Positions 3,243 to 27,612 are shown, numbered from the stretch's first letter. The stretch: DNA of 33,247 nt from Promethearchaeota archaeon (GCA_011364975.1 RDOE01000037.1:1-33247); one strand, 5' to 3'. Numbers and translations: made by a program. The notes: a model not told the origin generated them from the sequence alone.

Positions 3243-5570
3243 TTAAATAAGTATATCTATATTTTTTTTAGGAAAGGAGTTAATAATTTTCTTTAGATCT
3301 TCCGACTTCTCTAACTTTTCTTTTATTTCCTGAAATTTAGGATAATAATCATATAAAATCTTAAGAATTTGAATCCAATTGCGTTCTAAATCATTGCTCC
3401 CTTTAATATCTTTTCTTAATTTATTAATACTTGCTTTACTTCTCTTTTTATTAAGGAATTTAATAAAACTTTTAGTAATTTCGGTCTTGATTCTTTTAAA
3501 TTCCTCTGGTCTAAAACTTTGAATTGTGTAATTGAGGCTATCATCTGCGATAGGAAAAAACGCGATTATTTTATCTTCAGGCTCATCGGGATTATCAATT
3601 AAGGTGAATTCGATATCCGTTTGATTAATTGATTCTAAGATAGGATATAGTTCCCCTGGTGTAACTCTTGTTTGAAGTTGTATTTCAGCAGCCATTTCTG
3701 AAATAGTAAAGAAGAAATTTGGGTATTTATCCTCGTTTTCAATTCGATAAATATATTCCTTCTTCAATATATCAATAATTTGTTCTTTTAGTGAACTAGC
3801 TAATTCTTTTTGTGTAAATGAAATGGCACTAGACTTTTGTTTCTGGCCAATAACTTTTTGATCTCTTTGTTTCTTTGTATAGTCTGCAGATAATGAAGAT
3901 AAAAACATGTCAGTAGCATTATCAGAGGCTGAATCCGATTTAAGGTCAAGATATTTTTCTCTTTTTTCGGAAATTGTGTTATACAATCTTTCAGATAAAT
4001 ACTTTTTTGCCTTTTTTAAGGCGACACCTTTTTTATCGAATTTCTCTGTAACCGAGGTAAAGTCAATAATTTTTTGAGCTATACCAAAATCATCAGACTC
4101 TTCAGTAATTATTATATTCATGTTATCTCTATCTAACTTATTAATTAAGGAATAGACTTCATTTTTAGGCAATTGAGTCGCTTTAATTAATTCACGATCT
4201 AAAATCTCTAATGGATAGGCCTCACCACGTCTGATATACTCATTCTTAATCAAATTATAAATGATTTCCATACTTTCTTCTTCTTCACTGACTGTTTCTT
4301 TTTGTAAGCGAATAAACATAGAAGTTTCATGCGGTTTTAAATAATACACTAGTAAGGTTATACCTAGAAAAATAATCATTAGGATAGATACCACATATTT
4401 ATCTGCCATAAAAAATTCCCCAATCTCACTTATTGTTTGAGAAGGTATACCTGTTAAGAATGCAAATCTTGTTAAACTTTGTGATAAAACACATCCTAAT
4501 ATTAATAAAATGAGTCCATCTTCTTTAAAAATGAAAAGACGCCACCCTAATGAGCGTCCTAATTTCTTTATTATTCTATATAAAAAAAACATTGAAAAAG
4601 CGAATTCAACTAATACAATTATCCATGAATATAATGCTCCCGAGCCAGTCGCGCCAAAGCTTGCTTTTAATGCAGTTACAGTTACATTATTTAGCATTAA
4701 AAACATCGTAAGTTGAAATATTTGAAAGAAGAATATAAAAAAAACAATTAACGAAAACGTATAATTATCAAATAATCCGGCTCTTCTAGTTTCTGCTTTT
4801 CTACGAGTAAATACGAACTCGAAAATAATAAATAATAAAGTTAAGATTAAACTAAAATAAATTAGGGGCATTACTAATCTCATTTCAATAATGTAAACAT
4901 CTATAGCCTCAGCTTGAGCAAATTGAGCAAAAAAATCAAGCGAAATAAATACAAGTAATGCGCGATAAACAAGCGCTACTATTATTAAAATTGTTAATAT
5001 AAAATATGGGGTTATAAAGGCACCTACGCGTCTTAAGAATGAATACTTTTTAATTAATCGTGTTTCAATTTTTGTGGCATATTTTCGAGAATACATATAA
5101 AATCTAGTACTTAGAAGAATCAACCAAATCGTTGATAATGCAAGTAAATAACTTGAGAGATTAAATTGGGCAAGGAAAATATACAAAAATAAGATAAAAA
5201 GTACCGAAAAAAGCCCTATATACAAAATTGCTTGTTTAATAATAGATTTTCTCTCAAATATAAATTCTCGAAATTTAGCATTACTATATACTAAAGAGAG
5301 GACTAAAAATAGAGTTACAATGCTATTTCCAATAATAAAGAATAAATTTTTGATTAAATCATTACTAAAATAAATTTGAGGAAAATTTATCGCAAAAATT
5401 AGAATAAAAGAACTTATTAAAAAGATAAAATATATGGCATAAAATTTTTTCTCGTATGCGTATGATTTTGGAGCTTCTTTTCCATTTACCACTAATTCAT
5501 GGATGAAAATTTTTCGAAAAGCTCGTTTTAAGGAGTCTTTAATATTTGCTGTAAGATCTTTAACTGGCAT
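3243..5570 (-). CDS. Polytopic membrane protein (about 10-11 TM) with a large soluble C-terminal region containing a duplicated domain; function unknown
   Basis: 775-aa ORF. Residues ~45-410 alternate hydrophobic segments; the remainder is charged and holds two similar ~75-aa units. Confidence 0.8.
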   Translation of the reverse strand: MPVKDLTANIKDSLKRAFRKIFIHELVVNGKEAPKSYAYEKKFYAIYFIFLISSFILIFAINFPQIYFSNDLIKNLFFIIGNSIVTLFLVLSLVYSNAKFREFIFERKSIIKQAILYIGLFSVLFILFLYIFLAQFNLSSYLLALSTIWLILLSTRFYMYSRKYATKIETRLIKKYSFLRRVGAFITPYFILTILIIVALVYRALLVFISLDFFAQFAQAEAIDVYIIEMRLVMPLIYFSLILTLLFIIFEFVFTRRKAETRRAGLFDNYTFSLIVFFIFFFQIFQLTMFLMLNNVTVTALKASFGATGSGALYSWIIVLVEFAFSMFFLYRIIKKLGRSLGWRLFIFKEDGLILLILGCVLSQSLTRFAFLTGIPSQTISEIGEFFMADKYVVSILMIIFLGITLLVYYLKPHETSMFIRLQKETVSEEEESMEIIYNLIKNEYIRRGEAYPLEILDRELIKATQLPKNEVYSLINKLDRDNMNIIITEESDDFGIAQKIIDFTSVTEKFDKKGVALKKAKKYLSERLYNTISEKREKYLDLKSDSASDNATDMFLSSLSADYTKKQRDQKVIGQKQKSSAISFTQKELASSLKEQIIDILKKEYIYRIENEDKYPNFFFTISEMAAEIQLQTRVTPGELYPILESINQTDIEFTLIDNPDEPEDKIIAFFPIADDSLNYTIQSFRPEEFKRIKTEITKSFIKFLNKKRSKASINKLRKDIKGSNDLERNWIQILKILYDYYPKFQEIKEKLEKSEDLKKIINSFPKKNIDILI

Positions 5571-5758
5571 ATTTCAAGTAAATTTAAAAGTCCTATTAAT
5601 ACCGTAATTTAAATAATTATTATTGATTTTTCTCCCAAATAAATTTATATAATTCCTTATGTCATCCTTAATTTACTAAATATTAAACATTTTTTTCGAG
5701 GTATTTTATAAAATCGATGAAAATTTTAAAAATCTTAATATATAATTATAAGATATAC

Positions 5759-6031
5759 ATGGAAAATCAACCAGACAAAGAAACTTTATTAAAGTTAGTA
5801 AAACAAGCAATCGAAATGCTTTGTGAAAAAAATATTTCCAGTGTAGTCATACTTTCTTCTTATAAAATTAATGCTGTTTTAAAGGAACATTTAGGAGTAG
5901 ATATTAGAGTTGACAGAATTGGGCGTGTTTTAAGTAATGTTGCAGAGAGAAATAAGTTAAATCGCTTAAATACCAATATCCCAAAATATAAATTGAACAT
6001 TTCTAAGTTATCTACGCTTGAATTTTTCTAA
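5759..6031 (+). CDS. Small basic protein, possible winged-helix DNA-binding fold
   Basis: Likely start is the ATG at 5759 (MENQPDKE), rather than 5717. Helix-helix-turn-helix-like pattern SSYKINAVLKEHLGVDIRVDRIGRVLSNV followed by a beta-like KYKL. The fold call is inference. Confidence 0.6.
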   Translation: MENQPDKETLLKLVKQAIEMLCEKNISSVVILSSYKINAVLKEHLGVDIRVDRIGRVLSNVAERNKLNRLNTNIPKYKLNISKLSTLEFF

Positions 6032-6067
6032 ATAGAATTAAAAAAGAATTAAAATCTAATATGATCT

Positions 6068-7462
6068 TTACTTTAATTGTCTAAAATCAGAAATCACTTT
6101 CTGCAATCGTTCTATCAAACTTTGAATTTCTTTGTTCTTTTGGATGATAGAATCTGAATTTACATTAAAACTATCAATTTCTAATTTCAAATTATTTTCA
6201 AAACTACTACACGCTTTATCAATATCTGCTTTTAGAATGTCTGTAAGAGAATCTGTAGCTTTATGTAAACTTGACAAGTGATTTTGCAGTGTAGTTATAT
6301 TTGGTTTTATTTGGTTATTTTCTTGGTTAATATGATGTATCTTGACTTCAGTATGTGAAATTTTCTCATTTAATGCTGTTTTAGCGCCTTCAATATAATT
6401 ATTTATCACTTCTAATGAATCTGAGCTTAAATTTTGTAGAATTTGATTAATTTCCTCTTTGAGCTTTACTTGTTCTTCAATTGTTTTATTTAAATATCCA
6501 GAAACATCTTTAATAAAGATTTCAGATATCTCTTTAAAACTTCGAGTAAAATAATTCTCAACATCTTCAAAACCTTCCAACACAGTCTTGCGCATTTGAC
6601 TTACGGAACTTCTTAGTTGTTCTATCCCTCTTAAGGATCCAGTTGACATCGTATTCATCCAAGTTCCAAATTCATTTTGAATATTTTGGTCTATAGATTC
6701 ATTAAATTTCAACATCCCTTCACGAGCGCCTTCTAAAATATTGTTTATTTTGATATTTACTAAATCTTCCTCCTCTTCAATTATAGAATCTTCCGGTGTG
6801 GGAATTTTTTGAAGGTCTCCTAGGATTGGTTTACTAGTTTCATTGTATTCATTGACAATAACAGGTATTTTTTTTTGAGAATCTTCTACAAGGCTTTTTA
6901 CCCATTTAAAATAATCTAATGTATTCGGTTTTTCAATTTCATGCTTTACTTTACCATATTCACTTTCAGGACCTTTTTGATAATTCTTAAACCGAAAAAT
7001 TTCAAACGCATAATTTTTATTATGTTCCAATAATTTATAGTCAAAAACGATGGCAAAACCATGAGGATTCTCCTCATTTTGAAAAATTAGATGATTAGAT
7101 TTATCTGAATTTGATAAATAAATTCCATATCCTAAATGAGAATGATACCATCCGATAATACTAAGTTCTTTTTCTAAATATTTGCTTTTAATCTCAGTGA
7201 AGATATCATTAAGCTCTTGAGTAAAACCTAATTCTACGTTATCACCATGAGTTATTGGTATAACTTCCATAATTTTTAGTTTGTTTTGTGTAGGATCCTT
7301 TTTACCTAAGCAGATTCCTAATACTTCTTGCTTTTCTTCCAAAGAATCATTACCATATTTAAAAACATGCTGAAGCATCTTTCTAAATGCATTATTTGCT
7401 ATAGTAATTTCTCCTTCCTCTAAATATCTAAGTTCTTTTGTATCAATATTATTTGCTGTCAT
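6068..7462 (-). CDS. JAMM/MPN+ metalloprotease domain with long C-terminal helical/coiled-coil region
   Basis: KQEVLG glutamate; GWYHSHLGYGIYLSNSD fits H-x-H-x7-S-x2-D (HSH at 7136-7144); AIVFD and FEIFRF strands; then ~250 aa of heptad-rich sequence. Confidence 0.88.
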   Translation of the reverse strand: MTANNIDTKELRYLEEGEITIANNAFRKMLQHVFKYGNDSLEEKQEVLGICLGKKDPTQNKLKIMEVIPITHGDNVELGFTQELNDIFTEIKSKYLEKELSIIGWYHSHLGYGIYLSNSDKSNHLIFQNEENPHGFAIVFDYKLLEHNKNYAFEIFRFKNYQKGPESEYGKVKHEIEKPNTLDYFKWVKSLVEDSQKKIPVIVNEYNETSKPILGDLQKIPTPEDSIIEEEEDLVNIKINNILEGAREGMLKFNESIDQNIQNEFGTWMNTMSTGSLRGIEQLRSSVSQMRKTVLEGFEDVENYFTRSFKEISEIFIKDVSGYLNKTIEEQVKLKEEINQILQNLSSDSLEVINNYIEGAKTALNEKISHTEVKIHHINQENNQIKPNITTLQNHLSSLHKATDSLTDILKADIDKACSSFENNLKLEIDSFNVNSDSIIQKNKEIQSLIERLQKVISDFRQLK

Positions 7463-8947
7463 TTAATCCCCCTTATTCAATTCTTTTATTTTTTGTAATA
7501 ATTCTTTATTTTCACTTTTAATTTGTCGAATTGTATTATGAAGCGTTTGTTTTTCATTCTCTAATTTATCAATTTTTGCCAATATTGGATCTTTTGAACC
7601 TTCAAGTATCAGAATTGCAGCTTTTAAATCTGCTAATACATTTTTTGAACCCTTATCTAAATTACTAAAAATTGATTCTATATTTTTCAATTTCTTTTTA
7701 TAATTTTCTAAAATCCTGTTATGCTCTGATTTCAACATAGTAGAGATTCTGGTTGCAGTTGGTTCCAAAATATTTGAGATTTCTTTAACGCTATCATTAC
7801 TTTTCATTAAACTTTGCGTTATGTTTTTATTCTCTTTTTCAATTTCAATTAATTTGGAAATGATTTGTTCTAGATTGGATTTAATTTGATCTACATATTT
7901 TTTAAGAGTTTGATTGAAAATGTCTAATAATTGTTTATTAAATTTTTCTGAAAAATTATTTAATTTAATTTCAATGTTATTATTTTCCTCTTTAATTAAA
8001 TCAAGACGATCATCAATGTACAAATCAAGTTGCTTTAATTTTTCTTGAAGAGAATAATTATAATTCTTTTCTATATTGATAACTGATTGTCTTAAGGAAT
8101 CTCGAAGCTCTAATAAGTCTGTTCTCATCTGTGAGGTATTATAAAATATTTTATTTATTATTTCCTGACTCCATGAATTAATCAAATCAATTAATGGCTG
8201 TAAAGTCATCTCTAAAAGCGAATTCATCCCTTCTTTAAAAGAAACAAGTAACTTTGCATAATCTATTTCTGGTTTTTTGATAGCAAATTCCTTCTCTTCT
8301 GGAATCAATACTTCACTAAAAAGTTGGGTAGTTTCGTTTAATTCTAAAATGGGAGCTTCTTTTTTAAATATTTTATTAATTAATTCAATTAAATTAAAAT
8401 AAAAGACAGGATCTTCAGGAGGCTCAACAATACTCTTAACTTCATGATAATCTGAATTTAAAGATTTCGATGGGTCATCTAATCTATATGCTCTAAATCC
8501 TAAGTCTCCAGGTCTTTCCAAATATGTATGATCAAATACTATGCCTATCCCACTAGGATTTCGATCTTGCCAAAATAATTGATTATATTTGTCAGTACTA
8601 GAAAAAAACGTATTTAACCCAGGATGAGAGTGATACCATCCAACTGTAAACCAATGTTTATCGGAATAATTATCAAATATTTGTTGGTCGATATCTCCAA
8701 AAGCCCCCAGCTGTTCTTCAGAAAATTTAACTTCAATTGATCCACCATGACTTACTGGTACAACATCTTCAACAATTACATTTTTAATGGGACCATCTCC
8801 CTTAAGATGTCCAATTAACATGCCCATCACCTCTTTAAACTGATTAGGATCAAGAAATTTAGACCCAAATCTAAGAACATGGAGCAGCATTTTGTAATAT
8901 GCTGTTGGTTTAATCGTAACTAGACTTTGATCAACAAGTTTTCCCAT
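7463..8947 (-). CDS. Rpn11/CSN5-like JAMM/MPN+ metalloprotease with long C-terminal coiled coil
   Basis: VTIKPTAYYKMLLH...EVMGMLIG...VGWYHSHPGLNTFFSSTD closely follows the Rpn11/CSN5 pattern (HSH at 8624-8632). Its stop abuts the ATG of the paralog with no gap. Confidence 0.9.
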   Translation of the reverse strand: MGKLVDQSLVTIKPTAYYKMLLHVLRFGSKFLDPNQFKEVMGMLIGHLKGDGPIKNVIVEDVVPVSHGGSIEVKFSEEQLGAFGDIDQQIFDNYSDKHWFTVGWYHSHPGLNTFFSSTDKYNQLFWQDRNPSGIGIVFDHTYLERPGDLGFRAYRLDDPSKSLNSDYHEVKSIVEPPEDPVFYFNLIELINKIFKKEAPILELNETTQLFSEVLIPEEKEFAIKKPEIDYAKLLVSFKEGMNSLLEMTLQPLIDLINSWSQEIINKIFYNTSQMRTDLLELRDSLRQSVINIEKNYNYSLQEKLKQLDLYIDDRLDLIKEENNNIEIKLNNFSEKFNKQLLDIFNQTLKKYVDQIKSNLEQIISKLIEIEKENKNITQSLMKSNDSVKEISNILEPTATRISTMLKSEHNRILENYKKKLKNIESIFSNLDKGSKNVLADLKAAILILEGSKDPILAKIDKLENEKQTLHNTIRQIKSENKELLQKIKELNKGD

Positions 8948-9376: not shown

Positions 9377-11080
9377 TTGGAAAAAAAAGGAAAAATTAAT
9401 GGTGGGGACGTATTAGTAAAATGCCTCCTTGAAGAAGACGTTAAGTATATGTTTGGAATAACTGGAGGACAATTATTAACAATCTTCGATGCTATTTATA
9501 GATGGGGTAGAGAAAAAGGTATAGAGACTGTAATGTTTCGTCATGAACAAGCAGCAGCTCATGCAGCTGATGCATGGGCAAGAGTAACAAATAAACCAGG
9601 TATTTGTTTTGGAACAGTAGGTCCAGGAGCGTTAGATCTTGTTCCGGGAGTAGGTGCTGCATGGAGTGATAATATTCCCGTAATTGCGATTATTCCACAG
9701 GTAATAAGTGATACAGCTGATAAGTTTTCCCTACAAGGGGGATTAGATCAGATTCAATTGTTCAAACCGATTACAAAGTATCAGAAGAGCGTTCGTAAAA
9801 TAACTGAAATCCCTGATGCTGTACGGAAATGTTTTCGGGAAGCAACTGGTGGTAGACCTCGACCTGTATTATTAGAAATTTATGAAGATGCTTTTCTCGA
9901 ACAAATAGAAGAGAATGAAATTTCGATATATGAAAAAAATCGATATAGGGCAATCGAAAAACCTTCAATTAGTGATGAATTAATTCAAGAATCGTTAAAG
10001 ATGCTAATTAATGCAGAGAAACCATTGATAATCTCAGGTGGTGGCGTTGCTCGAGCAGAAGCATGGAAAGAATTACAGGAATTTGCAGAATATCTTCAAA
10101 TTCCCGTAGCAACCACAATTTCAGGAATTGGTACCATTTCAAATAAATCAAATTGTCATTTAGGAGCCACAGTTGGAGCGATCCAATCTGCAGCTAATAA
10201 ATCAGATGTGGTTTTAAGCCTTGGATGTAAATTTTCATATGTAATGGGTTACGGAGAAGAACCTACTTGGAAGAATTCTCAACAATTAATACAGGTAGAT
10301 ATTGATCCCGCTATGATTGGTCGAACTAAGCCTGTCTCTCTTGGAATTGTAGGTGATTGTAAATCTTTTCTAAATAAGATGTTGAAAGAAGTTAAAAAGA
10401 TAGAGAAAGTTGAATCAAGAAGATGGTTAGAAAAATTGAAAAAACAATCGCAACAATTATTTTCATTTCTTCAGGCAAGTATTTCAAAAGAAACATCTTC
10501 TATTACAGCAGAAAGAATGGTTAAAGAGGTCTTGGAATTTATTGATGAAGATGCGATTTTAATTTTGGACGGTGGAAATATAACTGTTTCTGCGTTTGAA
10601 CAAATAAATCTTTACAAACAAAGGAATCCACTTTCAACACTCCAGTCAACTGGGATGGGTCATTTAGGTACTTCAGTCCCTTATGGAATTGGAGCGAAAT
10701 TAGCGAAACCAAACAAGCAAATAGTTTCTATATCTGGAGATGGAAGCTTTATGATAAATATTCAGGATTTAGAAACGGCTGTGAGACTAAATTTAAAAAA
10801 TTTGATATATGTTGTTGCAAATAACAGTGCATGGGGTATGATAAAAACTATTCAACAATATGCCTTTAATCAAAGTTATATTGATGTAGATTTCCCAGAT
10901 TTTAATTTTGCTCAATGTGCTAAATCTTTTGGTTGCTATGGCGAGATTGTAACCGATCCAAACAATATTAAAGACGCTCTTGAAAGAGCAAAGAACTCTG
11001 GCAAAGTAGCGGTAATAGATGTTAAAATAAAATATGAAACTCCATTGTCAACCAAAATAACCTACGGAATCAATTTCTGA
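9377..11080 (+). CDS. Thiamine-diphosphate-dependent enzyme, acetolactate synthase large subunit/HACL-like family
   Basis: FRHEQAAAHAADAWAR catalytic Glu; GPG; PRPVLLEI; QVDIDP; ThDP-binding motif GDGSF-x~24-NN (ANNSAWGM). No regulatory subunit or other ilv gene adjacent, so the substrate is uncertain. Confidence 0.92.
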   Translation: MEKKGKINGGDVLVKCLLEEDVKYMFGITGGQLLTIFDAIYRWGREKGIETVMFRHEQAAAHAADAWARVTNKPGICFGTVGPGALDLVPGVGAAWSDNIPVIAIIPQVISDTADKFSLQGGLDQIQLFKPITKYQKSVRKITEIPDAVRKCFREATGGRPRPVLLEIYEDAFLEQIEENEISIYEKNRYRAIEKPSISDELIQESLKMLINAEKPLIISGGGVARAEAWKELQEFAEYLQIPVATTISGIGTISNKSNCHLGATVGAIQSAANKSDVVLSLGCKFSYVMGYGEEPTWKNSQQLIQVDIDPAMIGRTKPVSLGIVGDCKSFLNKMLKEVKKIEKVESRRWLEKLKKQSQQLFSFLQASISKETSSITAERMVKEVLEFIDEDAILILDGGNITVSAFEQINLYKQRNPLSTLQSTGMGHLGTSVPYGIGAKLAKPNKQIVSISGDGSFMINIQDLETAVRLNLKNLIYVVANNSAWGMIKTIQQYAFNQSYIDVDFPDFNFAQCAKSFGCYGEIVTDPNNIKDALERAKNSGKVAVIDVKIKYETPLSTKITYGINF

Positions 11081-15596: not shown

Positions 15597-16286
15597 TTAA
15601 ATTTCTTTTTTTTTGTAAATATTCTCTTCCCAAATTCTATATTTTTCCATGAGCCTGTCTATTTGTTCAATATTGGCTTCTTTGTTAAACTCAACAAATT
15701 TCTTTTTTTTTGAGTATTCTGCATAAATTTCTTTATTAGCCACCATTTGAAATATTATATGCTCCACTTTCCTTCTATTTATCGCAGACTTTTCAGAAAT
15801 ATCTCTAACTTCTAATCGTGCGAATTTTGTTCCAAAATTTAACAATAACTTTTTAATTAATGAAGATGCTTTCTTATTGGGGATATATACTAAGTACATA
15901 AGGTAAATGCTAATTGCTATAATTGCTCCCATAATAAAGTAATAATAAGCAATAAATATAGTGGGGATCAGACCATAAGTTCTTAGAATATTGTTCAGAT
16001 CAATTATCATTAAATAACAGCTAAAAAATCCAAAGATAGACGCAAGTCTAAACCTAAACTTGTAAAAAAAAATAACAGAAACGAAGATCAACCCGAAAAT
16101 AGTTGTTCCAAAAACACTAGAAAAAATTTCGAATATCATAAATGCTTCATTGGACATCAACAGCTCTGCTTGTATCTCAGAATAAAATAGATCTCTAAAT
16201 ATCAGATTTATTGTTGATAATAACGTTATTAAAACATATATAAATCTAATTAACCAATTCTTTATCTTATATATACTGACTATCAT
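15597..16286 (-). CDS. Four-TM membrane protein with C-terminal PCI-like winged-helix domain (paralog 1)
   Basis: Hydrophobic N-half, then FARLEVRDISEKSAINRRKVEHIIFQMVANKEIYAEY...VEFN...NIEQIDRLM, clearly homologous to the tail of the next gene. Confidence 0.75.
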   Translation of the reverse strand: MIVSIYKIKNWLIRFIYVLITLLSTINLIFRDLFYSEIQAELLMSNEAFMIFEIFSSVFGTTIFGLIFVSVIFFYKFRFRLASIFGFFSCYLMIIDLNNILRTYGLIPTIFIAYYYFIMGAIIAISIYLMYLVYIPNKKASSLIKKLLLNFGTKFARLEVRDISEKSAINRRKVEHIIFQMVANKEIYAEYSKKKKFVEFNKEANIEQIDRLMEKYRIWEENIYKKKEI

Positions 16287-16599: not shown

Positions 16600-18810
16600 A
16601 TGATGAAAAAGATCAATTTTCCTTTTACAGCGATTCTAGGACAAGATAAGATGAAATTGGGGTTGATTCTTAATGTTATTGATCCTCAGATTGGAGGAGT
16701 TCTATTAACAGGTCAACAAGGCACAGGTAAATCTACCGCAGTTCGCTCACTCGTCGAAGTAATGCCCGAAATTGAAGTAGTAAAAGGTTGTCAATTTTCA
16801 TGTAATCCAAAATTTGGATTAGATGATTTATGTCAGGAATGTCAAATTAAGCTTGAAAGAAAAGAGATAGAAATTGAAAAGCGTGAAATGAAACTGATAA
16901 ATCTACCGCTAGGGGTAACGGAAGACATGGTTACAGGTTCTTTGTCTATTGATAAAGTCTTAACAGAAGGGATAAGGAGTCTCCACCCAGGCTTACTTGC
17001 TAAAGCTAATAGAGGTATACTTTATATTGATGAGATTAATCTTCTGCAAGATCATATTGTTGATACTTTATTAGATGCATCTGCTTCTGGCGTTAACATC
17101 ATCGAGAGAGAAGGGATTTCTGTAGTACATCCTAGCCGTTTCATACTGGTGGGTAGTATGAATCCTGAAGAAGGAGAATTGCGCCCTCAAATTGCGGACA
17201 GATTGGGATTAGAAGTTAAAATATTAGCACCAAGAGATGCTAAATTGCGAGCTGAAATCACTAAGCGAGTTATTGATTTTGATGATAACCCTAAAGAATT
17301 CATTAAAGAGTATGAGGCACCCCAAGAAGAATTACGTAATAAAATAATCAAGGCTCGTAAAATTTTAAATTCAGTAAAAATTCCGGCTTCCGTATATGAA
17401 TTTGTTTCTAGATTAGTTAGTGAGTTAGATATTTTTTCCCAGAGAGCTGATATAACTTTCATTCGATGTGCACGAGCTCATGCTGCATTTGGAGGGAGAA
17501 CTCAAGTAATAGAAGAGGATTTAAATGCTGCTATGGATCTAGTTTTTGAGCATAGAATTAAATCCTTACATTATGAAATGACACCTGAGGAAGTGAAAGC
17601 TAAGGTTATTGAGGTATACGGAAAAATAGAAAAAGCACTTGAAGATCCAAAAGTATATCAACCTAATAAAGATACGGAAGGCCCCTTAAAGCATGATGAT
17701 ACTCCACAGAAGGAATTTAAACGACAATCCGTCGACCCAAAGAAAGTAGATATACCTGAGACAGAAGAGCAAAAATTACCACCTCCAAAATATCCTGATA
17801 ATAAAAAGAGAAATCCTACACCTGCTGGTGGTTGGAAAGTAAAAAATGTTCCTGAGTTTGATGATATGGATTTCAATTTTTTTGAAACTGACTCCGATAC
17901 CATGCCCTTGATATATAAAATGGAAAAAAGAATAACCTCAATTTTAGACACCATAAGGAAAGAAAGAAAGGTGACTAATTATGGCGGAAGAGGGATTGGC
18001 AGACGTATAAAAATTGCCTCTTCTCAGAAAGGAAGATATGTATCTTATAGGCAACCAATAAATAAACCGAAGAGTTTAGCATTAGATGCCACTATAAGGA
18101 ATTATTTAAAAAATACAATCTATAATGAGACTAATGTCGAATTTCCAATTAAATTTGACAAATATGATTTAATGGATAAAATTTATGAATATCGGGCTCC
18201 TTTAGTTTTATTCTTTGTTTTAGATAGCTCCGCTTCAATGTATTATGTTATCAAACAAATGACTGATGTTATCCTTTCATTACAACGAGAAGGATATCGT
18301 AAAAAAGATAAAATTAGTTTACTTGTATTTAGGGGTAAGCAAGCTATTGTTCTACAAGAACCAACGGTACATTTTAAAACTGCCATTAACAAATTAAAAA
18401 AGATAGAAGGTAAATCATATACACCTATGGCAGCTGCATTAACAAAGGTTATGAAATTAATAAATGCTGAGAAATTAAAAAACCGAAATGTAATTCCCGT
18501 TATCTTTATTTGTTCTGATTGTGGAGCTAACATCTCATATAAATATCCTGATCTTATTGCCCAGGTTCAATCGGATTATACTATTATAATTAATGAATTG
18601 AAAGAAATAACCAAAAATTTATCAAAGAAAGGAGTTCATATGGTTGTGTTAGAACCAAAGAAATCTTATGCTACTCAAGCATTAGGAGTAAATACTTATG
18701 CCGCAGACGAAATAAAAAAGAATTTCAAGATCTTTGGTGAAGCAGAAATTTTCCAATTTGATAGATATAATCCTAAAAACCTTATATTAGAATTGAAAAA
18801 AATTCTATAA
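16600..18810 (+). CDS. Mg/Co-chelatase ChlI/ChlD-type AAA+ ATPase fused to a vWA domain
   Basis: FPFTAILGQDKMK; Walker A GQQGTGKS; PGLLAKANRGILYIDEINLL (Walker B); MNPEEGELRPQIADR; Pro/acidic linker; MIDAS DSSASM and TPMA in the vWA domain. Confidence 0.9.
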   Translation: MMKKINFPFTAILGQDKMKLGLILNVIDPQIGGVLLTGQQGTGKSTAVRSLVEVMPEIEVVKGCQFSCNPKFGLDDLCQECQIKLERKEIEIEKREMKLINLPLGVTEDMVTGSLSIDKVLTEGIRSLHPGLLAKANRGILYIDEINLLQDHIVDTLLDASASGVNIIEREGISVVHPSRFILVGSMNPEEGELRPQIADRLGLEVKILAPRDAKLRAEITKRVIDFDDNPKEFIKEYEAPQEELRNKIIKARKILNSVKIPASVYEFVSRLVSELDIFSQRADITFIRCARAHAAFGGRTQVIEEDLNAAMDLVFEHRIKSLHYEMTPEEVKAKVIEVYGKIEKALEDPKVYQPNKDTEGPLKHDDTPQKEFKRQSVDPKKVDIPETEEQKLPPPKYPDNKKRNPTPAGGWKVKNVPEFDDMDFNFFETDSDTMPLIYKMEKRITSILDTIRKERKVTNYGGRGIGRRIKIASSQKGRYVSYRQPINKPKSLALDATIRNYLKNTIYNETNVEFPIKFDKYDLMDKIYEYRAPLVLFFVLDSSASMYYVIKQMTDVILSLQREGYRKKDKISLLVFRGKQAIVLQEPTVHFKTAINKLKKIEGKSYTPMAAALTKVMKLINAEKLKNRNVIPVIFICSDCGANISYKYPDLIAQVQSDYTIIINELKEITKNLSKKGVHMVVLEPKKSYATQALGVNTYAADEIKKNFKIFGEAEIFQFDRYNPKNLILELKKIL

Positions 18811-23904: not shown

Positions 23905-26900
23905 TTGGTGCGAATAAGAGTGAGTTCCATAAAAAATTCCAGCAATTTTAATATCGACGAGTTATTTGAAAATAATGAAAATTTAACTTTCCTTGTAGGA
24001 GCGGGAAGTTCCACCAGTTCTCCATCATTATTACCTTCAACAAATAACATAGTTAATGCTCTAATAACTTATTTTTGTCCACCCTCAGAAAAAGAGAAAA
24101 TTTTACAAATAAAAAGCCTGCGATTTGAAAATCTCATTGAAATTATTCATGAATCTATCAATGATAATTTTAAATTTTTAGATTTTTATTTTGATAACGA
24201 TAGACCAAATTTAGAACATTATACCATTGCAGAAATGCTTAATAAAGGAAGCTTCGTACTCACAACTAATTTTGATTCGTTATTAGAACAAGCTCTCTTA
24301 AATTTAGATATCGCCAGAAAAAAAATCATTCCTGTTATAACTGAAAAGGATTATGAAAGATACAATGATCCATTAAAGTTATTCAAAGCTGGAAAGATAC
24401 CTATCTATAAAATTCATAGCTCTCCAAAAAATCTTATCACGGGAGAAGATACAAGGGAATCTTTTATAAATACATTAAAATTGATAGGTAAAAATAAATC
24501 TATGAACAATATTATCCAATTAGAACCTTATAAAGCTCAGCTACTTAATAATATTACAAACAATCGAACATTAATTATAATTGGATATTCCGGCAAACAC
24601 GATTTTGACTTTTTATCCACTTTAAAAACTATGAAAACCCTTAAAAATCTAATTTGGATAAATCATATTTCAAATGGAGAGATGGAGGAGGGTTTGTATG
24701 AATTTGAGGCTAAAAAAGTTAAAACCAAAGAAAAGCTAGATGAATTGGATTCAGTTCTTGCCGAAATCAAGAGATTTAATGATTTTATTAGAATTTTTAG
24801 ATATGACACAAATACAATCAAATTTTTAGAGGAAAAATTTGAACAAAAAGAAATAGTAAGTACAGAACAGCCTTTTCTGGATTTAATGGGTTGGTTAAAA
24901 GAGAATGTAGCAGAACCCAATGATCTAACTAAGCTACTTCTCTCTAGCAAAATATACATTCAAAGTAATGCATATAGTGACGCATTTCGATTGTTGGACA
25001 AAATTTATCGAATGGCAGAAGATTCTGGAGATACTGAATGGAAATCATTATCCTTAATGTATATGGGTTTAATTAATTTTGAGCGATCAAATTTAAACGA
25101 AGCATTAGATTGGTTCCAAAAATCGCTACAATTTCAACTTAAAATCAAAAAATTCCCAAAAAGGGTTTTGATTTTCAAATATATAGGGATGATTTATCAA
25201 TTGCAAAAAAAATATAATGATGCCTTAAAGTTTCTCGAGTTAGCTGTAAAAGAAAATGAAAAGTACAAAAATTATGAGGAAAAATCAAACTTATATCAAT
25301 TAATTGGCAAAAATTATCAATTTCAAAATAAACATGAAGAGGCGTTAAAATATTTTGATGCCGCTTTACGACTTGATGAAAAACTTTTTAGATTGTTTGA
25401 TGAGGCACTAAACTATAAGCAAGTTGGTAAAGTTTATTATTCCAAAAAAAATTATTCTGAAGCTTTGAAAAATTATCAATTAGCCCTTAATATCGTAGAA
25501 AAGTTAGATAATTTAGAAGAAAAAGCAGAAATACTAAATATATTAGGTCACATATTTCATGAAACAGGAGATTCATTAAGAGGTTTAGAAAAATGTAATG
25601 AAGCACTTAATTTCTATAATAAAATTCAAAATATGGAAGGAAAATTAAATTCTCTTAATTTTATTGGTATTATTTACCGGGATCAATGGAATTATCCAAG
25701 AGCTTTAGAATTTTTTGAAGAGGGATTTCAACTAGCTGAAGAACTACAAAATAATGAACAGAAAGCGATTTATAGTTTCCAAATAGGAATAATATATCAT
25801 AATCAAGATAAAAATTTTGAAGCATTAAAATGGTTTGAGGATTCCTTACATCTTTTTGATGAGTTAGGGAACTTTGAAGGGAAAGTTAACAGTTTGAGAG
25901 AAATAGGTAATATTTTTCAATCTCAAAAAGCTTTTGTTAAAGCATTAAAAAGATTTGAACAAGCATTAGAAATCTATGAACAAGTTGAAGATACAAATAA
26001 TAAAGCCTCAATCTTGAACCAAATTGGGCAAATTTTCCTAGAACAAAGAAAGTTTCCAGAGGCTTTACGAAATTTTGAAGCATCTTTTCAGATCTTTTCT
26101 GAGAATGACAATCTTAAGGGAAGTGCTGATAGTTTAAAAAGTATTGGTAATTTTTACTATGAACAAGCTAATTTTAAAGAAGCAATGAATCGTTATAGTG
26201 ATGCCTTAGTTATTGCAAATGAATTAGGTTTAAACGAGATGAAAGCAGATTTAAAAAACAAAATAGGATCCATTTATCAAGATCAAGGTGAATATCCAAC
26301 CGCATTACAGAACTTTGAAGAAGCTTATGATTTGTTTACTGAAGAGAATAACATGGAAGGTAAAATTGATAGTTTGCTTTTCATAGGTTTGAACTATCAT
26401 TATACCGGAAATGATGAAGATGGGTTAAAAAAGTTTGAAGAAGCAATCCAAATCGCTGAACAAATTGGTAATTTACATAAAAAGGCTCAAAGTCTAAACA
26501 TAATTGGCAATATATACCGAGAACAATGGAATCTAGTTGAATCACTTAGAAGATATGAAGAAGCTCTAGTAATCGCTGACCAAATGGGACATTTAGAAGA
26601 ACAAGTACACATTTTGAATATTATAGGAAAAATTTATCAAAGTCAAAAACATTATCCTGAATCAATACGTAGATTTCATCAAGCTATTGATGTAGCTGAA
26701 ACTTTAGGAAATCTTGAAGTTAAAGCTGACATCTATTCAAGTATTGGTGATATTTTTTATGATGAGGAGAACTATACTGAAGCGTTGAAGTGGTATGAAG
26801 AAGCTCTTAAAATTGATGAACAATTAGGTGATTTGAAGGGGAGAGCCCGTAGATTATTGCTTATTGGAAATGTATTTCTCGAACATAACAAATTCGATGA

Positions 26901-27612
26901 GGTACTTAAAAGGTTTAGAAGCGCATTAGAATTTGAAGAACAAATCGGTAATTTAACCAATCAAGCGACTTTAATAAGAAAAATAGGGGAGATTTATCAC
27001 AGACAGGGATTATATCCCGAAGCTTTAAGATGGTACGAAGATGCCTATAAATTATTCGATCAAATTGAAAATTTAGAAGGCAACGCAGACTGTTTTGAAA
27101 GTATTGGAATTATTTATCAAGATTTAAATAATCATTCTGAAGCTCTCAAGTGGTATAGTGAAGCACTTAAACTTTCGGAACAAATCTACGATGAAGATAG
27201 AAAAGCAAGAGTTCTTTGCAAAATTGCTTCCATTTATCATGAACAAGGAATATATAAAGATGCATTTAAACGCTATAATAGTGCTTTAGATATTTTTGAT
27301 AAAAGAGGTGATTTAATCGGTAAAACCTATTGTTTAAATCAAGTAGGATTAGTTTATCAAGAGCGGGGAGAATTTGACGAAGCTTTAAAATGGTATGAAC
27401 GAGGAACAAAAATATTTAAAGTATTAGGCTCATCCAAGGAAAAAGCAGATAATCTTTACAATACTGCTCTTATCTACCGAGATCAGAGTAAATTTATTGA
27501 AGCCTTAAAAACCTTTGAAGAGGTTATGAAAATTGATGAAGAATTAAATAATCATATAAGGAAGGCTGAATCTTTAAATAACATTGGACTCATATATCTC
27601 GATGAAGACTGA
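23905..27612 (+). CDS. SIR2-like (SIR2_2) domain fused to a long 40-aa-period TPR array; frameshifted near the 3' end
   Basis: FLVGAGSS (~23998), TTNFD (24262-24276), YKIHS (His at 24415), IIGYSGKHDFD; then more than 20 repeats of the type A/SLNxIGxIYxxQGxYxEALKxYExALxI. Confidence 0.88.
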   Translation: MVRIRVSSIKNSSNFNIDELFENNENLTFLVGAGSSTSSPSLLPSTNNIVNALITYFCPPSEKEKILQIKSLRFENLIEIIHESINDNFKFLDFYFDNDRPNLEHYTIAEMLNKGSFVLTTNFDSLLEQALLNLDIARKKIIPVITEKDYERYNDPLKLFKAGKIPIYKIHSSPKNLITGEDTRESFINTLKLIGKNKSMNNIIQLEPYKAQLLNNITNNRTLIIIGYSGKHDFDFLSTLKTMKTLKNLIWINHISNGEMEEGLYEFEAKKVKTKEKLDELDSVLAEIKRFNDFIRIFRYDTNTIKFLEEKFEQKEIVSTEQPFLDLMGWLKENVAEPNDLTKLLLSSKIYIQSNAYSDAFRLLDKIYRMAEDSGDTEWKSLSLMYMGLINFERSNLNEALDWFQKSLQFQLKIKKFPKRVLIFKYIGMIYQLQKKYNDALKFLELAVKENEKYKNYEEKSNLYQLIGKNYQFQNKHEEALKYFDAALRLDEKLFRLFDEALNYKQVGKVYYSKKNYSEALKNYQLALNIVEKLDNLEEKAEILNILGHIFHETGDSLRGLEKCNEALNFYNKIQNMEGKLNSLNFIGIIYRDQWNYPRALEFFEEGFQLAEELQNNEQKAIYSFQIGIIYHNQDKNFEALKWFEDSLHLFDELGNFEGKVNSLREIGNIFQSQKAFVKALKRFEQALEIYEQVEDTNNKASILNQIGQIFLEQRKFPEALRNFEASFQIFSENDNLKGSADSLKSIGNFYYEQANFKEAMNRYSDALVIANELGLNEMKADLKNKIGSIYQDQGEYPTALQNFEEAYDLFTEENNMEGKIDSLLFIGLNYHYTGNDEDGLKKFEEAIQIAEQIGNLHKKAQSLNIIGNIYREQWNLVESLRRYEEALVIADQMGHLEEQVHILNIIGKIYQSQKHYPESIRRFHQAIDVAETLGNLEVKADIYSSIGDIFYDEENYTEALKWYEEALKIDEQLGDLKGRARRLLLIGNVFLEHNKFDEVLKRFRSALEFEEQIGNLTNQATLIRKIGEIYHRQGLYPEALRWYEDAYKLFDQIENLEGNADCFESIGIIYQDLNNHSEALKWYSEALKLSEQIYDEDRKARVLCKIASIYHEQGIYKDAFKRYNSALDIFDKRGDLIGKTYCLNQVGLVYQERGEFDEALKWYERGTKIFKVLGSSKEKADNLYNTALIYRDQSKFIEALKTFEEVMKIDEELNNHIRKAESLNNIGLIYLDED

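Follow-up and report, generated by a model that had tools for sequence, protein, structure and literature searches.

The 33,247-nucleotide (nt) stretch of DNA analysed here (the window; RDOE01000037.1:1-33247 of assembly GCA_011364975.1, from a Promethearchaeota archaeon) carries on its minus strand two adjoining genes, A and B, which encode paralogous MPN-domain proteins with long helical tails. The window is AT-rich, with a G+C content of 25-36%. No intergenic bases separate the two genes: the junction reads ...AAGGGGGAT TAA ATG..., the stop codon of A being followed at once by the ATG of B. The pair is a real, conserved operon of eukaryote-type MPN proteins in Lokiarchaeia-like Asgard archaea, and its members differ in the fate of their active sites, since the site of A is always intact and that of B decays repeatedly and in several ways. 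The parts of both genes and the neighbouring features are collected in Table 1.

Table 1. Coordinates of genes A and B, their parts and neighbouring genes in the window (aa, amino acids; ORF, open reading frame; pLDDT, predicted local distance difference test score)
Feature	Position	Strand	Description and basis
Gene A, MPN+ protein	7463-8947	-	ORF, 494 aa; conserved and putatively catalytic partner of B
A MPN domain, residues 9-195	8363-8923	-	E39 at 8831-8833; H106-D119 at 8591-8632; AlphaFold2, Foldseek, PDB profile search
A flexible linker, residues 196-236	8240-8362	-	Motif PPILExNETPDLFGDIxxP; pLDDT <50 at 197-236
A helical tail, residues 237-494	7466-8239	-	Core of ~218 aa to P454, then zipper-like C-terminal extension of variable length
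Shine-Dalgarno-like purine-rich run AAGGGGGA	7467-7474	-	Within the last codons of A, 5 nt 5' of the B ATG
Gene B, MPN paralog	6068-7462	-	ORF, 464 aa; motif intact here, degenerate in most orthologs
B MPN domain, residues 18-195	6878-7411	-	Bounds from alignment with A (BLASTP); E46; H107-D120 at 7103-7144
B linker, residues 196-240	6743-6877	-	Conserved motif PILIKExxE...DLQEIP
B helical tail, residues 241-464	6071-6742	-	Near-constant length; colinear with the A tail (BLASTP)
Zinc-ribbon protein, 217 aa	11249-11902	-	Unknown N-terminal domain, conserved linear motifs, C-terminal zinc ribbon; synteny, directly 5' of A in most loci
MPN3, third MPN paralog, 329 aa	12148-13137	+	Pfam JAB 32.8 bits; intact JAMM; divergent; conserved beside zinc-ribbon gene, A and B
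104-aa protein	5717-6031	+	Convergent with B; beside B in 41 loci at 60-77% identity
775-aa membrane protein	3243-5570	-	~10 predicted transmembrane helices at 43-411; soluble C-terminal half of ~365 aa; synteny
ChlI/ChlD-like AAA + VWA protein	16600-18810	+	'putative cobaltochelatase' 586 bits, cut-off 779; adjoins MPN3 in most loci
Thiamine pyrophosphate (TPP)-dependent enzyme	9377-11080	+	Acetolactate-synthase-like domain set; inserted in opposite orientation between zinc-ribbon gene and A

Both proteins match the Pfam JAB family (PF01398), A with 47.9 bits and B with 47.0 bits against a cut-off of 22.5. Prok-JAB scores fall below these values of about 47 bits in both cases (25.1 bits for A, where the cut-off is 25, and 16.5 bits for B). 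The JAMM catalytic motif, E...HxH-x7-S-x2-D, is complete in both translations. In A, which contains AYYKMLLH, EVMGMLIGH and VGWYHSHPGLNTFFSSTD, the JAMM segment reads VGWYHSHPG...S..D and the catalytic residues are E39, H106, H108, S116 and D119. The counterparts in B are AFRKMLQH, EVLGICLGK and IGWYHSHLGYGIYLSNSD, with a JAMM segment of IGWYHSHLG...S..D and residues E46, H107, H109, S117 and D120. The two proteins are 26% identical over 411 aa, tails included (BLASTP, E = 1e-35). An earlier note on this DNA, made from its sequence alone, had described paralogs with zero intergenic bases, an intact motif in each and Rpn11/CSN5-like N-terminal motifs in the upstream gene, and all three descriptions agree with the translations. 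Its figure of 250-290 aa for the helical tails holds for A (~259 aa) and comes close for B (~225 aa).

In its sequence matches the pair resembles eukaryote-type enzymes. Searched against solved structures, the A profile matches the Caldiarchaeum Rpn11 homolog (2.9e-14), Rpn11 (3e-12), BRCC36 (3e-10) and CSN5 (4e-10), and the B profile matches Rpn11 (1.3e-12), CSN5 (2e-11) and Rpn8 (4e-4); no archaeal desampylase-type JAMM is among the solved-structure matches of either at E <= 1e-3. The NCBIfam desampylase model gives A 18.9 bits, far under its cut-off of 130, and gives B no match.

Modelled by AlphaFold2 from 41 orthologs (pLDDT 73, predicted template modeling score 0.40), A shows an MPN domain over residues 9-194 and a single helix over 231-492, with disorder in the linker at 197-236. 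A alone was modelled singly; the MPN domain of B is known by sequence alignment and profile. A Foldseek comparison of the A model with the PDB ranks BRCC36 at the top, in an alignment of about 300 columns that takes in the C-terminal helix; next come CSN5, Rpn11, the Caldiarchaeum Rpn11 homolog and eIF3h. There are 195 matches at E <= 1e-3, and isolated MPN cores reach target TM-scores of 0.6-0.74. In this model, A has the MPN fold.

The linkers and tails are conserved in distinctive ways. All 45 A orthologs have a linker of exactly 41 aa and 44 of 45 B orthologs one of 37-46 aa, and the motifs of the two linkers are related to each other and conserved. The B tail is 223-227 aa in 40 of 45 orthologs. 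The A tail varies in length mostly at its C-terminal end, past the conserved proline P454, leaving a core of ~218 aa comparable to the near-constant 225 aa of B. Between A positions 405 and 490, six of the eight listed insertions of at least 4 aa are 7 or 14 aa long. Both tails have a hydrophobic period of 3.55-3.65 residues (3.65 in B), and hydropathy analysis predicts no membrane segment in A or B. Matches of the tails to apolipoproteins, chemoreceptor coiled coils and the ZorA tail are weak; we rejected them as homology and read them as helical composition bias.

Relatives of the pair come from Asgard (Promethearchaeota) assemblies, 340 for A and 50 for B after clustering at 90%; the names given, where there are any, read 'Mov34/MPN/PAD-1 family protein' and 'proteasome lid subunit RPN8/RPN11'. 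A profile search of a library of 1.84 billion representatives gives 141 clusters (50% identity) with E <= 1e-30. None of the best 150 entries falls below 117 bits, and these are close relatives only; Rpn11 from the PDB scores about 49 bits.

To place the pair in its genomic setting, species-representative genomes were scanned, which confirmed 497 of 605 candidate stretches; the best 80 were kept, amounting to 77 loci (given L numbers below), and all of their ORFs were mapped by BLAST and hidden Markov models. B lies directly 3' of A on the same strand in 43 of the 43 loci that have a complete A and downstream sequence. The sole other locus with a complete A, L029, stops 20 nt past it, and in L050 a truncated A is followed by B. 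Because the same pair occurs in 44 other loci, its occurrence in the window is more than chance, and the adjacency persists in loci where identity has fallen to 35% (A) and 23% (B). With starts called mechanically, 43 of 44 pairs have a gap of no more than 15 nt between the genes. Just before B, a strict pattern finds a Shine-Dalgarno-like motif in 37 of 43 loci and a loose one in 38, whereas 40 control windows placed inside A gave means of 1.6 and 5.3 of 43. The earlier picture of tightly coupled MPN paralogs with helical tails is borne out, and the pair is conserved and of eukaryote type.

In a 54-row tree, A, B and a third paralog from the same neighbourhood, MPN3, form one clan each (Shimodaira-Hasegawa-like approximate likelihood ratio test values of 96, 100 and 100), and the B branches are longer. 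Since each of the three is a single clan, the duplication is older than the divergence of these lineages. The pair is therefore old, and the recent duplication lacking conserved adjacency that the earlier note had held up as the counter-case is not what we find. A and B probably duplicated within Asgard archaea; more distant Asgard genomes, including Sigynarchaeum and one assembly labelled Bathyarchaeota, have A-like genes with no adjoining partner. A full-text literature search returned no description of the A-B pair, although supplementary tables of Asgard signature-protein and asCOG surveys lay outside that search and may list the families. In the searched full texts, the operon is previously undescribed.

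A signature difference between A and B is the retention of the active site, which we counted as intact when all five JAMM residues (E, H, H, S and D) were present. Among orthologs from the genome loci, A is intact in 45 of 45, whereas B is intact in 9 of 46 and has lost at least one catalytic residue in the other 37. In an independent database set the counts are 121 of 121 for A and 14 of 51 for B, to which the window proteins come in addition. The other MPN genes at the genome loci are intact throughout: MPN3 in 31 of 31, a fourth family termed C (MPN plus a TPR-like region) in 25 of 25, and distant single genes in 5 of 5.

The losses in B are diverse. Degenerate patterns include QHHSD, EHRSD, E[ILN]RTT, ELHSG, QCH[VD]D and others, and three further B orthologs read EHHTD. 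Mapped on the A tree, they require 4-7 changes per B residue and at least three for the intact/degenerate label. Losses extend to the nearest genome relatives of the window, in which the glutamate has become Gln (L001 and L003), the second histidine Arg (L002, L004 and L005) or the first histidine Val (L033). B reads EHHSD in the window and in five of its five closer metagenomic relatives (61-99% identity). With 9 of 46 orthologs intact, yet the window sublineage intact, catalysis by B appears to be dispensable across the family and retained in this sublineage. Even as the catalytic motif decays, the MPN core residues, the linker motif and the length of the tail are retained in B, as are its place in the operon and its coupling to A.

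These counts divide the earlier proposal that both subunits are still active and represent a state before pseudoenzyme formation. Judged by its residues, the site of B may be active in the window lineage, and a state before pseudoenzyme formation may describe the window sublineage. Because residues are lost from 37 of 46 B proteins and from 0 of 45 A proteins, the family as a whole shows pseudoenzyme formation under way or completed, and not just the prior state. Read from the motifs, the description of one catalytic and one dead paralog fits the family as a whole and does not fit the window.

As a separate observation, the B proteins of L006, L007, L008 and L042 and those of L016, L021, L022 and L026 have the same E[ILN]RTT pattern, within '...SRPGWGLDFTE[IV]TI...', and these groups stand apart on the A tree. 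To account for the shared pattern, lineages could have exchanged B, or the quick tree could be wrong on this point.

Two lines of analysis bear on whether A and B act together. In one, distance matrices were compared over the 18 of 44 loci in which six neighbourhood proteins are near full length. The A and B matrices correlate with r = 0.94, the highest value of all protein pairs, and a partial r of 0.84 remains after the signal of the nearby AAA-VWA protein and membrane protein is removed. Over the same 18 loci, A or B with MPN3 or the zinc-ribbon protein gives a partial r of 0.04-0.19 (0.04-0.09 for MPN3), with no signal of co-evolution. A and B are also the fastest-evolving proteins of the block, with mean p-distances of 0.49 and 0.60 compared to 0.20-0.42 for their neighbours. 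The co-variation is suggestive of joint action, an important caveat being that the figures fall short of proof because matrix entries are non-independent and adjacent genes can be exchanged jointly.

In the other analysis, the complex of full-length A and B was predicted from 41-row alignments. The runs scored 0.43, 0.48 and 0.49 (median 0.48), compared to 0.00 for the best of three controls, with a partner pLDDT of 66-70 and at least 30% of contacts shared between runs. Of 80 solved complexes, 58 reach the pass mark for such predictions, as do 2 of 110 mismatched pairs, and those that pass with scores of 0.60 or less comprise just 7 of the 80 solved complexes and both of the passing mismatches. 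At this level the prediction passes but lends weak support to an A-B complex, for which the translational coupling and the co-variation provide indirect support.

Taken together, these observations lead us to favor a model, which we judge somewhat likelier to be right than wrong, in which the two eukaryote-type MPN paralogs, encoded in a single operon, act jointly, A as an obligate isopeptidase and B as a partner whose catalysis is dispensable. We infer the heterodimerisation, the coiled-coil geometry, the enzymatic activity and the substrate from the evidence above and from the family. A would be an obligate zinc isopeptidase that most likely removes or processes ubiquitin or a ubiquitin-like modifier, with Asgard conjugates or precursors as likely substrates. 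B would be its stoichiometric partner, made by translation coupled to that of A, and would most likely bind A through MPN-MPN contacts and an in-register coiled coil of the helical segments of ~220 aa. Catalysis by B, repeatedly lost elsewhere with the site intact in this genome, would be dispensable. The short motifs of the conserved 41-45-aa linkers probably dock other proteins. Like these motifs, the variable terminal zipper of A may recruit partners or build higher-order assemblies, and the stalk would keep the catalytic heads away from whatever the tails or linkers bind.

Several observations count against this model. The intact site of B means that the label of inactive partner does not fit the window itself. 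The substrate is a guess from family, because Pfam scans of the window found no ubiquitin, E1, E2 or E3 gene. Adjacency alone partly reflects relatedness, since 14 flanking genes of unrelated function are syntenic across the loci too. The correlation between A and B, drawn from non-independent matrix entries at just 18 usable loci of 44, could stem from exchange of the pair as a unit or from a rate or composition shared by paralogs. The A+B score is weak, came with no reported interface and may echo solved dimers of the Rpn8-Rpn11 type that the model has memorised; similar scores can arise among close paralogs, and, because the prediction covered A+B only, it does not tell a heterodimer from a homodimer. 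The lengths of the A and B tails do not co-vary (r = -0.22), and in L027 the A tail has 14 additional residues at its middle with no counterpart in B.

The most serious of the rivals makes use of several of these points. It holds that A and B are independent enzymes, acting alone or as homodimers, which are neighbours through tandem duplication and slow change of gene order. The synteny of about 14 functionally unrelated genes over the whole neighbourhood speaks for it, as do the intact motifs of both window proteins; the A+B prediction (0.48 vs 0.00) is weak and leaves heterodimer and homodimer inseparable, and in a structural study (PMC6043591) the Caldiarchaeum Rpn11 homolog crystallised as a homodimer. 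However, independent enzymes would not drop catalytic residues in 37 of 46 cases while keeping length, MPN core, linker motif, adjacency and coupling, and the partial r of 0.84 is well over the values for the other neighbours. We consider independent action unlikely, though with a real chance of being right. The long tails invite a different alternative, in which the pair, perhaps joined by MPN3, serves chiefly as a coiled-coil stalk for structure or tethering, with MPN heads that bind ubiquitin-like or other proteins and with catalysis secondary. More than half of each protein is tail, a helix of 260 aa is modelled in A, and the large membrane protein and the zinc-ribbon protein are conserved neighbours. 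Non-catalytic MPN domains serve as scaffolds in eukaryotes, which also speaks for such a role. Against it, the five catalytic residues of A are invariant (45 of 45 and 121 of 121), which argues that catalysis by A is under selection, and no membrane segment is predicted in A or B. The tail profile matches to apolipoproteins, chemoreceptor coiled coils and the ZorA tail would fit a stalk, but the apolipoprotein and ZorA matches are weak and typical of helical composition bias. A primarily structural pair seems improbable to us.

Finally, the pair could be part of a mobile system or a defence against viruses of the Bil or CBASS type, in which JAB proteases occur alongside E1/E2-like enzymes. A has a weak PADLOC JAB match (14.9 bits, E = 0.003; none for B), weak ZorA-tail matches occur, a SIR2-TPR protein is encoded 15 kb off, and A and B evolve faster than their neighbours (p-distances of 0.49 and 0.60 vs 0.20-0.42). 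Yet no E1, E2 or ubiquitin-like gene adjoins the pair, the PHROGs matches are coiled-coil noise, and the fixed chromosomal position, with housekeeping-like flanks conserved in at least 40 genomes, is unlike that of defence islands. We give this explanation hardly any credence.

If the favored model of a catalytic A and a dispensable-site partner B is right, the pair would work like the eukaryotic MPN+/MPN- pairs, although membership in those complexes does not follow from the likeness. Like the pairs of the PCI complexes (Rpn11-Rpn8, CSN5-CSN6 and eIF3h-eIF3f), A and B are two MPN paralogs of which one is always catalytic by motif and the other is losing JAMM residues. As in the Rpn11-Rpn8 type, the MPN core is followed by C-terminal helices. 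Rpn11 and CSN5 rank high among the sequence matches of both proteins and the fold matches of A, and the B profile also reaches Rpn8. Unlike that type, A-B has no conserved PCI partner in the window, and its tails of 225-260 aa are modelled as single helices rather than as short bundle helices. In contrast to the eukaryotic pairs generally, A-B is operon-encoded and B is still intact in some lineages.

In form, A-B appears closest to BRCC36-Abraxas, by virtue of its coiled-coil tails. In the cores of BRISC and BRCA1-A, the MPN+ enzyme BRCC36 needs an MPN- partner, Abraxas or ABRO1, to which it is joined by the MPN domains and C-terminal coiled-coil helices, and UEV and VWA proteins serve as accessory subunits. 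The A model finds its best Foldseek match in BRCC36, C-terminal helix included. However, the coiled coil predicted for A-B is much longer, no UEV (BRCC45-like) partner is seen near the pair, and the nearby VWA protein is ChlD/BchD-like, with no sign of being a MERIT40 analogue.

Prokaryotic enzymes offer looser parallels. Archaeal JAMM1 desampylases and Prok-JAB enzymes have the same JAMM catalytic motif and are small single-domain proteins; A scores far under the cut-off of the desampylase model and B has no match to it. The JAB proteases of Bil and CBASS systems differ in that A is only a weak PADLOC JAB match and B none, and the neighbourhood has no E1, E2 or ubiquitin-like gene. Nearer to the pair is the Rpn11 homolog of Caldiarchaeum subterraneum (PDB 6fjv and 6fju), an archaeal eukaryote-like MPN+ enzyme and the best PDB sequence match for A. 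Unlike A, it is about 200 aa long, adjoins ubiquitin, E1, E2 and E3 genes and has no degenerate paralog as partner. A and B differ from it, and from the JAMMs of Asgard ubiquitin operons, in being 464-494 aa long, paired and away from any ubiquitin-system gene in the window. Fuchs et al. place Asgard JAMMs closest to Rpn11, and a 2018 structural study describes the MPN+/MPN- arrangement as not known in archaea (PMC6043591).

A broader reading is that the A-B operon may correspond, in prokaryotes, to the MPN+/MPN- modules of eukaryotes (Rpn11-Rpn8, CSN5-CSN6 and BRCC36-Abraxas) and may even be related to them, so that the pairing of an active enzyme with one drifting toward a pseudoenzyme would already exist in Asgard archaea. 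We would call this unlikely; if it were true, the whole series, from pairs with both sites intact to pairs whose partner is entirely dead, would survive in different Asgard lineages. Taken a bold step further, the reading would have the stalk, the linker motifs, the zinc-ribbon protein and the 775-aa membrane protein make up an Asgard-specific, membrane-associated deubiquitinating machine. The family also adds an uncharacterised, widespread component to the Asgard ubiquitin-like toolkit. An invariant A, together with B proteins that range from intact, as here, to dead in several independent ways, makes recombinant tests feasible. Such tests would give access to whether the partner is structural or activating, whether catalysis by B matters where it is kept, and how pseudoenzymes arise.

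The pair sits in a conserved block with the order ChlD-like AAA-VWA protein, MPN3 (divergently transcribed), zinc-ribbon protein, A, B, 104-aa protein (convergent), 775-aa membrane protein, MFS transporter and P-type ATPase. No gene of the block is better conserved than that of the AAA-VWA protein (73-86% identity). MPN3 has an acidic insert and a helical tail of ~130 aa, shorter than those of A and B. The zinc ribbon of the 217-aa protein matches Pfam zinc-ribbon families below their cut-offs, and its N-terminal domain, modelled by AlphaFold2 at a pLDDT of ~90, has no Foldseek match in the PDB at E <= 1e-3. The 104-aa protein has no match in Pfam, NCBIfam, PADLOC or PHROGs; the 775-aa membrane protein has none in Pfam or NCBIfam and falls among hypothetical Asgard clusters only in a protein atlas. 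The TPP enzyme that interrupts the block is missing from that site in most loci, and L033 has one there. In the 36-nt gap between the stop codons of B and the convergent 104-aa gene, a run of T on the minus strand at 6040-6046 could be, on sequence grounds, a candidate archaeal terminator.

Other parts of the window are less conserved. Segment 13274-16286, found in 0 of 77 loci, encodes two paralogous multi-pass membrane proteins along with a DUF6011 protein and a protein of 293 aa whose ends are hydrophobic. The C-terminal winged helix of the two paralogs, with a shared 'EIYAEY' stretch, gives rise to a weak Pfam PCI match. We rejected this match (25.7 bits), the only PCI-like one of the window, as a PCI partner, since it corresponds to the winged-helix end of the multi-pass membrane protein at 15597-16286, which is absent from all 77 loci. 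At 23905-27612, on the plus strand, lies the gene of a 1235-aa protein with an N-terminal SIR2-like domain and a long TPR array, which has PADLOC matches to TPR/SIR2-type candidate defence proteins.

The scanned loci also contain MPN genes of other architectures. In an uncultured archaeon (L051, 907-2538, plus strand), a single 543-aa polypeptide has N-terminal TPR repeats, a JAB/MPN domain scoring 53.3 bits and, at its C-terminal end, a match to the PCI winged helix (30.3 bits, cut-off 22), and so reads as an archaeal MPN-PCI fusion. The C family, found in L052-L077, comprises proteins of ~520 aa in which the MPN domain is followed by a TPR/SNAP-like helical C-terminal region (for example at 9881-11470 of L077 and 9890-11446 of L066); its genes are single and lie elsewhere in the same genomes as the A-B pair. 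One of these loci, L060 (DATKTW010000100.1), is labelled Candidatus Nanopelagicaceae bacterium, has an MPN gene of the C family that resembles the Asgard ones, and is probably a mis-binned contig.

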